Of a stretch of DNA of 64,000 nucleotides, positions 25,149 through 26,161 are shown one piece after another. Under the pieces are notes generated by a model that was not told where the DNA came from, did not search any database, and saw only the letters and a program-made list of their open reading frames with translations. The number at the start of each line of letters is the position of its first letter. Position 1 is the stretch's first letter. The stretch spans positions 4,207 to 68,206 of the forward strand of contig CAYIEF010000001.1 of NCBI GenBank assembly GCA_964362365.1, read 5' to 3'. Origin of the DNA: an uncultured Methanosarcinales archaeon. Its GTDB lineage: Archaea; Nanobdellota; Nanobdellia; Woesearchaeales; GW2011-AR9. The translations under genes were made by a program, and so were the position numbers.

Positions 25149-25220
25149 TAAATTTGGAGTCCGTTAATCAAATGAGCGAAGCGATACATTAATGCATAGA
25201 ATTAAGGGGGCTTTGGCGTT
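25149..25220. repeat. left arm of nested inverted repeats (X=TAAATTTGGAGTCC 25149-62; Y=GGGGCTTTGGCGTT 25207-20)
   Basis: Perfect reverse-complement partners at 26148-61 (X') and 26121-34 (Y'). Confidence 0.7.
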
Positions 25221-25264
25221 GTAGAAAACAAATATTTATTAATGTAATATTTCTTTTCAAGTTT

Positions 25265-25558
25265 ATGGGGATATTAAATCATCTTTTTGGCTCAAAAGAG
25301 TCTATCGCAAAAGAAATTGAAGCAGATGAAGAAGCTATTATCAAGCATTGGAAACATTATCTTGGCACAATTCCTAGAAAGAAGGAGATTATTGCAAAAC
25401 TTAAGTTAGATAATAAGTTCCAAATCAACTTACGGGAATTAAAAAAATTATTAGATTTGGAATTGGTAGACATTTCTGATGAAGAAAAGGAGGAATCAGA
25501 ACTGATATCTGATTTGGAAGCGATAGGACACTCTCAAAAAGTAAAAAGAGTACACTAA
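25265..25558 (+). CDS. hypothetical protein (inside the inverted-repeat-bounded cassette)
   Basis: 97-aa charged ORF. Confidence 0.4.
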   Translation: MGILNHLFGSKESIAKEIEADEEAIIKHWKHYLGTIPRKKEIIAKLKLDNKFQINLRELKKLLDLELVDISDEEKEESELISDLEAIGHSQKVKRVH

Positions 25559-25754
25559 TTAGAACAGTGTTTGGGATATGCAGAAACAAAATTCGAATAT
25601 GTTTATGGATTGTTACATCAGCTACATTCTATATTAAAATCACAAATTCACATAGTCATTAAACTGCAAATTGGAGCAAAGGACACTGAGAAGTTAATAT
25701 CACATCTTCAATCACAATAAAATAGGGAAAATAGAAACATTTCGTAGTTTATTC

Positions 25755-26114
25755 TTGGCACTCATTAAAGGAGAGCATATAATAAGAACTATGGATTCTA
25801 GAGAGAAACGATTACTTAAAAAAATGCAGAAAGGAATTAGTAAAATATTCTCTAATGAAATTAACGAAGGAATAACTTACGAATGGGCAATGGCTGTTTT
25901 TAATGCGATTGAAGACAGGGTACATGAAGGAGTTGCTAATGGAATGTTTCCGGGATATCATCCAGATATTGATTTTGAATTTGCAAATAGGCCAGAATTT
26001 GTTGATTTAGTCAGAGAAAGCATACAGACTTTAAGAAAAAGGAAAGTTTCAGAGCAAATGATCAACGTATTTGTGCATCTGTTCAGAGAATGGTATAACC
26101 ACGAGCGAGATTAA
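25755..26114 (+). CDS. hypothetical protein (inside the inverted-repeat-bounded cassette; alternative start at 25791)
   Basis: 119-aa ORF. No family recognised. Confidence 0.4.
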   Translation: MALIKGEHIIRTMDSREKRLLKKMQKGISKIFSNEINEGITYEWAMAVFNAIEDRVHEGVANGMFPGYHPDIDFEFANRPEFVDLVRESIQTLRKRKVSEQMINVFVHLFREWYNHERD

Positions 26115-26120
26115 CATTAG

Positions 26121-26161
26121 AACGCCAAAGCCCCTTTCTAGTTATAAGGACTCCAAATTTA
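26121..26161. repeat. right arm of nested inverted repeats (Y'=AACGCCAAAGCCCC 26121-34; X'=GGACTCCAAATTTA 26148-61)
   Basis: Exact reverse complements of Y and X in the left arm. Confidence 0.7.

Follow-up and report, generated by a model that had tools for sequence, protein, structure and literature searches.

Archaeal integrons and clusters of attC sites lacking integron integrases (CALINs), including those of Nanoarchaeota, are documented (Ghaly et al. 2022, PMC9668308). Archaeal integron-like cassettes were first reported in 2022, and most archaeal integrons are integrase-less CALINs (PMC9668308). By definition, an attC site has AAC and GTT at its ends, contains two boxes and a terminal structure that varies, and carries extrahelical bases on the R''-L'' arm for which the R'-L' arm offers no partner (Bouvier et al. 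2009, PMC2727003). The integron integrases studied to date use the bottom strand (PMC2727003, PMC9668308). Here, we analyze a candidate orphan cassette at positions 25020-26172 of a 64,000-nt stretch of the archaeal contig CAYIEF010000001.1 (the window), in which two nested pairs of inverted repeats bracket a broken gene. The outer arms (L1/R1) and the inner arms (L2/R2) would form two cassette-specific helices set in a conserved scaffold, an arrangement that we call the clasp. To our knowledge, a clasp around the cargo has not been described for integrons, and the non-coding parts of archaeal cassettes have so far been treated as plain attC sites.

Long inverted repeats also flank the archaeal 16S and 23S rRNA genes; base-paired in the precursor, they display a bulge-helix-bulge motif (bioRxiv 10.64898/2026.03.23.713588). 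As in these processing stems, distant complementary segments bracket a whole gene in the window, are kept up by compensatory changes and are predicted to loop the transcript. In contrast, the cargo is protein-coding, the left arms lie upstream of the cargo promoter, and no bulge-helix-bulge was seen when 25200-25225 was inspected together with 26116-26140: in place of two 3-nt bulges separated by a 4-bp helix we find a 44/13-nt asymmetric internal loop and no 3-nt bulges. Inspection by eye likewise revealed no C/D-box (RUGAUGA/CUGA) and no split-tRNA leader logic.

On balance, we favor the reading that window positions 25020-26172 represent a solitary, decayed cassette of a modular integron-like family in Woesearchaeota/Nanoarchaeota, with the clasp pairing in the sense single strand, probably RNA. 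Taken separately, the assignment to such a family as an orphan cassette is likely, and the window copy is probably a non-functional relic.

Nested inverted repeats inside an insertion between corA and an antiporter gene

L1, TAAATTTGGAGTCC (25149-25162), and R1, GGACTCCAAATTTA (26148-26161), the outer arms, are exact reverse complements of each other, as are the inner arms L2, GGGGCTTTGGCGTT (25207-25220), and R2, AACGCCAAAGCCCC (26121-26134). The inner pair lengthens to 20 nt with 18 of 20 positions paired (25204-25223 with 26118-26137). Both 14-mers had been listed in a first-pass annotation of the sequence, and upon re-inspection of the coordinates they are exact and correctly placed. The contention that two nested 14-mers cannot be due to chance holds for the nested arrangement, as nested co-linear pairs occurred in 0 of 200 dinucleotide shuffles at k = 14 and in 1 of 200 at k = 12, but not for a single pair: exact 14-nt inverted pairs less than 3 kb apart are nothing unusual on their own (1.2 expected per shuffled window, 4 observed). 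No further copy of either 14-mer is present in the window when up to 2 mismatches are allowed. Other exact 15-nt inverted pairs less than 3 kb apart are located at 34366-34386 / 36935-36955 and at 37853 / 38322, neither of them nested.

Contigs identical to the window locus come from Hainich groundwater well H51, and the nearest genomes are metagenome-assembled genomes of Woesearchaeota/Nanoarchaeota, which are DPANN archaea. The cassette sits between two divergent genes, corA (23901-24950, minus strand) and a Na+/H+ exchanger gene (26244-27446), and the neighboring products are CorA, the Na+/H+ exchanger, a PLD-like protein and NurA. The first-pass annotation had proposed a search for empty sites, and eight relatives provide them: their corA-antiporter spacing is 88-131 nt, compared with 1,293 nt in the window. 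A 9-bp direct repeat, TAGAAACGT, is single in these empty sites (...GAG-TAGAAACGT-TAAAAAAG..., with the version ...GCAGAGTAGAAACGTTAAAAAAGAC... in L014) and double in the window (24997-25005 and 26203-26211). Because the spacer of the relatives is so short and TAGAAACGT is single there, comparison of the sequences identifies the ~1.2-kb segment as an insertion, with which the cassette would have entered between corA and the antiporter gene. The DNA between the two TAGAAACGT copies amounts to 1,197 bp (25006-26202).

The arms are not terminal but lie 143 nt (left) and 41 nt (right) inside the insert ends, and we found no inverted repeat at the true ends (25006 / 26202) in any register of the 9-bp repeat. 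A look for target-site duplications immediately outside 25149 and 26161 had been proposed; a direct repeat is present, but not at these positions. DNA homology to repeat-bearing copies in other contexts spans window positions 25141 to 26175, that is, from arm to arm, and the extra flank DNA of the insert has no match among the related loci collected. The direct repeats around different copies are of unlike length (9 bp in the window, ~25 bp in L040 and 131 bp in L050) and thus a poor fit to one fixed target duplication. The two L050 repeats are 95% identical (approximately L050:3445-3575 / L050:4699-4829).

The arms co-vary and favor the sense strand

Copies of 72-89% protein identity keep the whole module in different genomic contexts. 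In an arm alignment of eight copies (31 pairs), 91.7% of the cells are paired, compared with 24-60% in slid controls. Nine pairs have changed on both sides, a number reached in 0 of 500 shuffles, and RNAalifold independently recovers the same two helices. The window has a private compensatory change, GGAGTCC/GGACTCC in place of the GGAATCC/GGATTCC of the other copies, and in L048 half of both outer arms (TAATTTTTAGGGGC / GCCCCTAAAAATTA) is replaced while all 14 of 14 positions are still paired. We consider it very probable that the arms are selected for pairing.

The aligned pairs comprise 193 Watson-Crick pairs, 11 G.U pairs on the plus strand, 1 A.C pair and 5 others; L094 alone has four mismatches, all of which are G.U. 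The top strand is the more stable one in 6 of 7 clasps and in 8 of 9 inter-cassette palindromes, and a sense RNA of 1,050 nt (window 25127-26176) forms both helices in its minimum free energy (MFE) and centroid structures. We infer that a single-stranded sense molecule, most likely RNA, carries the clasp pairing, since RNA would be the simplest bearer of such selection; taken alone, the assignment of this molecule to RNA, as read from sequence, is tentative. Among the candidates put forward at first pass, long-range RNA pairing fits best, given the compensatory changes, the G.U bias on the sense strand and the MFE closure, whereas the bicistronic transcript that it was to bracket reduces to one pseudogene. 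A stand-alone structured RNA in the left module was considered and rejected (z-scores 0.4 and 0.6, almost no consensus structure), and a search of Rfam returned nothing at the window locus or in 14 related loci.

The pairing RNA might be made by read-through or from the array as a whole; alternatively, a distinct RNA from upstream might pair with the 3' untranslated region (UTR) of the cargo mRNA. Pairing would loop the cargo and join the two cassette boundaries, and might serve insulation, processing or stability of the transcript.

The same scaffold with different arms surrounds unrelated cassettes

Approximately 200 nt downstream of the homologous cassette, contig L042 contains a second left module with the same leader and spacer and with the arms TCGGGAGAAAGGGC and GGGGACAATTTTAATGA, the exact complements of which follow 1.5 kb on, in the same nested order, around DUF5343, HEPN_Swt1 and an open reading frame (ORF) of 62 amino acids. 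A systematic scan detected five consecutive bracketed units in L042, more in L043, L046 and L091, a single bracket in the window and ∼0 in shuffles. The arms of the L042 units are entirely different between cassettes and always complementary, and the cargo is unrelated. One of these units (L042:1148-3405) holds an AsnC-type regulator and a class II aminoacyl-tRNA synthetase-like (tRNA-synt_2) gene, both of an ordinary metabolic kind. The unit after L042 position 7148 seems to bracket a CoaE/cytidylyltransferase gene. The clasp architecture may reach well beyond accessory genes in the L042 organism.

The 5' part of the common scaffold consists of G|TTAnnnnn, leader hairpins, AG, L1, a spacer hairpin with a G-N-A or GNRA loop, ..GAATTAR and L2; in the 3' part, the cargo is followed by R2, a T-rich segment of 10-13 nt, R1 and TTG-nnnnnTAAC. 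Written as a pattern, this reads AG-N14-GTYCTATC..GNA hairpin..GAATTAR-N14 ... N14-TTTCTAGTTTTTA-N14-TTGNNNNNTAAC. As far as can be read from these contigs, the same clasp design, with different arms, is present around at least four to six other unrelated cassettes. A generic terminator, with the same repeat pairs flanking unrelated loci, had been named as what would speak against the first-pass interpretation; the arm sequences are instead cassette-specific, and only the architecture recurs. The motif GAGCGAAGCGA is frequent in L042 cassette leaders.

Likeness to integron cassettes

The related contigs resemble integron arrays in that tandem units of one to three ORFs lie between imperfect palindromes, with the cassette boundary at G|TT(A); L042 forms an array of five consecutive units, while the window cassette is solitary. 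The inter-unit palindromes (83-175 nt in L042, L043 and L091) follow the scheme nnnnnTAAC-A-TC-GGAATTTAACG ... branched hairpins ... CGTTAAATTCC-TG-TTAnnnnn. They carry the AAC...GTT ends, R and L boxes and variable terminal structure of attC sites. In L042, two unpaired bases (TC) are positioned on the R''-L'' arm between TAAC-A and GGAATTTAACG, as expected for extrahelical bases; they are adjacent, whereas such bases are separated in bacterial attC sites. The first 8 nt of a cassette (TTAnnnnn) complement its own 3' nnnnnTAA with 0-1 mismatch in nine cassettes, and cross-cassette comparisons mostly give at least 2. In the window, ATATATTC and GAATATAA are complementary at 7 of 8 positions, and only degenerate palindrome halves are left (25006-25027 and 26162-26202). 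The same cassette is found beside different neighbors, as in integrons: L089 and L091, two near-identical contigs, share a cassette and diverge right after ..CCTGTTA, a point that by analogy is the behavior of integron cassettes recombining at G|TT. As for integrons, the hosts include Nanoarchaeota. Unlike in integrons, each cassette here adds two cassette-specific helices and the conserved scaffold.

It is conceivable, and a suggestion that we advance with reserve, that DPANN integron-related cassettes combine an attC-like palindrome with a scaffold in which two (or three) freely evolving complementary helices clasp the cargo, a previously undescribed and sequence-programmable design. If so, the clasp would either make the transcript of each cassette a folded domain that is insulated or processed, or direct recombination to the two ends of one and the same cassette. 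If general, it would represent a second, cassette-specific layer of base pairing on a gene-capture system and raise two testable questions, namely whether cassette RNA closes on itself and whether the pairing helps the recombinase to find both ends. The conserved scaffold with its nested complementary arms would also be a practical signature for cassettes and orphan cassettes in DPANN genomes. The result for the window itself is more modest: one foreign cassette landed between two divergent promoters and then decayed.

Several observations weigh against our reading. The covariation comes from 8-9 sequences, with L048 supplying most of the double changes, and the G.U bias could be partly mutational (transcription-strand bias). 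Only the right arms are present in L093 and only the inner pair in L044, L045 and L052, which implies that a cassette can do without the clasp. As the gene has its own promoter box downstream of the left arms, a leaderless mRNA cannot contain them and a second, unproven transcript is needed. With respect to integrons, bacterial attC sites are recombined as bottom strands, whereas the structures here favor the top strand, the cargo has its own promoter, and some bracketed cargo is housekeeping-like, which is unusual for integrons. Neither the window neighbors nor 10 larger flanking ORFs from six repeat-bearing loci include an integrase (IntI) or other tyrosine recombinase. The window insertion lacks canonical G|TT junctions and looks, from its sequence, like a cassette opened in the palindrome loop, with a 9-bp duplication. 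Membership in the integrons is therefore not established.

Weighing of other explanations

A serious rival places the clasp in single-stranded DNA during cassette recombination: in an excised circle or a folded array strand, L1/R1 and L2/R2 would extend the palindrome stem (~30 bp), join the crossover sites and guide excision or insertion by a tyrosine recombinase. On the right, the arms come within 3 nt of the cassette boundary; on the left, the distance is 47-71 nt, and 129 nt in the window. The first 8 nt pair with their own 3' box, so that in a circle R2 to L2 would form one long interrupted stem. The left arms are outside the gene's own transcript, cassettes swap neighbors (L089/L091), and G.T pairs are tolerated in DNA too. 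Nevertheless, we rate this role as rather unlikely, as wobble bias and folding energies favor the top strand and the studied integron integrases use the bottom strand (PMC2727003, PMC9668308), the checked flanks contain no integrase, and no circular junction was observed. A different use of RNA, which strikes us as improbable, would make the left module (~25127-25255) a separate small sense RNA, with two variable guides that would control the stability or translation of the neighboring cargo mRNA by pairing in trans with its 3' UTR. Two variable segments do lie in a conserved scaffold upstream of and apart from the cargo promoter, the G.U bias is on the sense strand, and there are archaeal small RNAs with known targets in the 3' UTRs of both leaderless and leadered mRNAs (PMC4152357). 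The likeness to these systems is that of a non-coding region complementary to the 3' UTR of a leaderless mRNA; here, however, the putative partners are in cis in one mobile unit, with two nested helices and a third at the cassette ends. Moreover, a promoter or terminator for such an RNA is not demonstrated, on its own the left module does not fold stably (z-score 0.4) and has no Rfam match, and the third helix at the cassette ends would be left unexplained.

The first-pass annotation had also proposed a miniature inverted-repeat transposable element (MITE) and an invertible switch. A non-autonomous transposon (MITE or mobile insertion cassette), with the repeats as terminal and subterminal inverted repeats and a transposase acting in trans, agrees with the insertion, the empty sites in relatives and the 9-bp direct repeat, and with homologous units in many contexts; an IS240-family transposase gene is found near one copy (L039). 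The window element further shares with the MITEs and mobile insertion cassettes of a published census that it is small and intergenic, contains inverted repeats, has a direct repeat at the insertion and lacks a mobility gene of its own, and Woesearchaeal genomes are reported to be MITE-rich (PMC11602168). The repeats are not termini, however: the arms are 143 and 41 nt inside the duplicated target, the true ends have no inverted repeat, the arms differ wholly between cassettes of the same scaffold, and there is only one copy in the 64 kb of the window. The mismatch spectrum is strand-asymmetric, and flanking direct repeats of 9, ~25 and 131 bp are not a fixed duplication. This already disfavored explanation is very unlikely. 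Since they are non-terminal, unconserved between cassettes of the same architecture and single-copy in the window, the arms are not transposase-binding terminal inverted repeats; nor are they inversion sites. Perfect inverted repeats ~1 kb apart have the geometry of a phase-variation switch with the repeats as recombination sites, but promoter and gene are both inside, so inversion changes nothing obvious. About ten independent contigs from several Hainich samples display a single orientation (assemblies only, and thus of low power), there is no adjacent invertase or other recombinase gene, and two nested, cassette-specific pairs with mismatches of the G.U type are unexpected for recombinase sites; we regard an invertible segment as extremely unlikely. 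Overall, the first-pass interpretation is partly supported.

The cargo is a broken member of a protein family predicted to be all-alpha

The two ORFs of 97 and 119 amino acids that had been described between the repeats are pieces of one broken gene, which relatives read through in a single frame. The 97-residue ORF and a 49-residue ORF are in the same frame with a TAA between them, the 119-residue ORF is in another frame, and all three pieces fall in one frame in the relatives. Compared with the closest copies, the window gene (25265-26114, plus strand) has two lesions: an AAA codon (Lys in intact copies) has become an in-frame TAA at 25556-25558, and a 26-bp deletion between 25715 and 25716 shifts the frame. 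The window copy is homologous across residues 1-291 but has no full-length single reading frame. Because these two lesions break the homologous frame, we take the gene to be a pseudogene of a ~291-residue, DPANN-specific family.

At 90% identity this family comprises at least 176 clusters and, at 50%, 247 representatives. Almost all are ~290 residues long and annotated only as "hypothetical protein". Intact single ORFs of ~291 codons are present in 38 of 44 scorable loci, four loci have one stop codon, and L079, like the window, has a frameshift. Programmed recoding, with one in-frame stop per copy, was considered and attributed to sampling bias in view of the 38 intact loci. In the four copies with a stop (L036:4968, L038:305, L040:941 and L041:1332) it falls between codons 86 and 117, and L066, which shares the context of the broken L036, is intact. 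The gene may thus have been inactivated several times independently, possibly with one region of it preferred. Contig L054 (Hain-H51, coverage 4), from the same sample, has an intact copy of 73% identity in a conserved radB-like context; its G+C content (0.41) and coverage are similar to those of the window's contigs. Possibly L054 represents the resident copy of this population or of a sister one, the window cassette then being a redundant second copy.

The protein fold is predicted to be all-alpha (model pLDDT, a per-residue confidence score, 79). Searches with the family returned no significant hits in Pfam, NCBIfam, PADLOC, PHROGs or PDB sequence profiles, and Foldseek found none for the predicted model in PDB and BFVD. 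A viral origin was discarded, as no relative is present in IMG/VR. The region is low in G+C, as noted at first pass, but this is by itself no mark of foreign DNA: the gene is AT-richer than its flanks, by 2-7 points, in every genome.

A box, AAACAAATATTTATTAA, is strongly conserved in all family members and ends 22 nt before the ATG, a geometry that suggests an archaeal promoter of a leaderless mRNA, with a transcription factor B recognition element (BRE) and TATA box. Homology of the repeat-less copies begins at 25224-25228 and covers promoter box and gene only. Of the whole module, the more distant family members, many of which precede a radB-like gene, share only promoter box and coding sequence.

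Parts of the window element

The insert opens behind the left TAGAAACGT repeat with GCAGAAAACCACAG (25006-25019, plus strand, as are the parts below up to 26202), which by comparison would be a degenerate 3' half of the attC-like palindrome, with an L'-like AGAAAA followed by ...CAG; its counterpart in relatives is ...AAATTCCTG|TTAnnnnn. The cassette starts after ..CCACAG with ATATATTC (25020-25027; TTATATTC expected), which pairs with GAATATAA at 26164-26171. The leader (25028-25134) carries the inverted repeat GTCAACCCTAC / GTGGGGTTGAC (25028-25038 / 25124-25134) and has no match elsewhere among the related loci. It also holds a degenerate TTGAnTTAAACATA-ATTTAA motif (25083-25110) like the conserved sequence after R1 in other cassettes, and an AT-rich box at 25091-25107, considered as an upstream promoter, is better read as a copy of this motif. 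The hairpin CTGC-GAAA-GCAG that had been pointed out at 25135-25146 is indeed present, directly 5' of L1. Hairpins at the same place in other copies have covarying stems (TTGC/GCAA, TTTC/GAAA, GCC/GGC).

Between L1 and L2 lies the conserved 44-nt scaffold (25163-25206), in which a GTTAAT/ATTAAT hairpin surrounds a GAGCGAAGCGATAC mini-hairpin and is followed by ..AGAATTAAG. The BRE/TATA-like box AAAACAAATATTTATTAAT (25225-25243) is found in all family members, repeat-less ones included. R2 begins 6 nt past the stop codon and is separated from R1 by the conserved T-rich spacer TTTCTAGTTATAA (26135-26147; consensus TTTCTAGTTTTTA). TGG-AATATAAC (26162-26172) corresponds to the TTG-nnnnnTAAC conserved after R1 in every cassette (R''-like box), and the cassette 3' end reads ...GGAATATAAC, with 26172 as its last base. 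The following CTATTTTCTCAGTTCCAAAGGCATTGCTTT (26173-26202), without a match elsewhere, would be the rest of the 5' half of the attC-like palindrome; its TTTTCT can pair with AGAAAA at 25009-25014. At the two extremes of the insert, 14 nt on the left and 30 nt on the right may represent two halves of one palindrome, opened in its loop. Past the right TAGAAACGT repeat comes the TATA-like box that belongs to the Na+/H+ antiporter gene.

Other features of the window

The first-pass annotation had described AGCGAAGCGA (25175-25184) as a motif shared with a dispersed repeat family, and we count four exact occurrences in the window compared with 0.16 expected. The sites listed are 35862-35871 (minus), 36051-36060 (plus), 53676-53685 (minus) and 21410-21421 (plus). 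The spacer motif of related cassettes is GAGCGAYAGCGATAC, and the exact AGCGAAGCGA match in the window at 25175 is due to a 1-nt difference. An attC-like half site, AATTCCTG|TTAGTTTC, is present on the minus strand at 35943-35953, beside a 40-nt repeat (21342, 35955, 35996; window 35955-36035). We found no second clasp near 34.2-36.1 kb and none around the adjacent minus-strand ORFs (34885-35725). A tRNA-Thr(GGU) gene (29503-29574, minus strand) overlaps by ~15 nt with the end of a 212-residue ORF (29560-30198, minus strand), which has a weak LAGLIDADG_3 match.

The spacer that separates corA from the Na+/H+ antiporter gene is a hot spot for insertions (window 24951-24996 and 26203-26243; L013:7748-8000, L016:6881-8000, L021:7714-8000). 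L016 carries at the same spot a different insert of 1.0 kb with a TrmB-like ORF of 122 residues and an ORF of 90 residues, the right junction of which, ..TTT|TAGAAACGT, is at the same position as in the window. The insert of L013, ~150 nt in length, contains inverted repeats of 18 bp (CGTATGTATTAAGTTAGC) as well as the direct repeat TTTTTCCG, and L021 has another small insert bearing repeats. Even without an insert, the spacer forms a small palindrome, TTTCTA..TAGAAA, flanked by two inverted TATA-like boxes.

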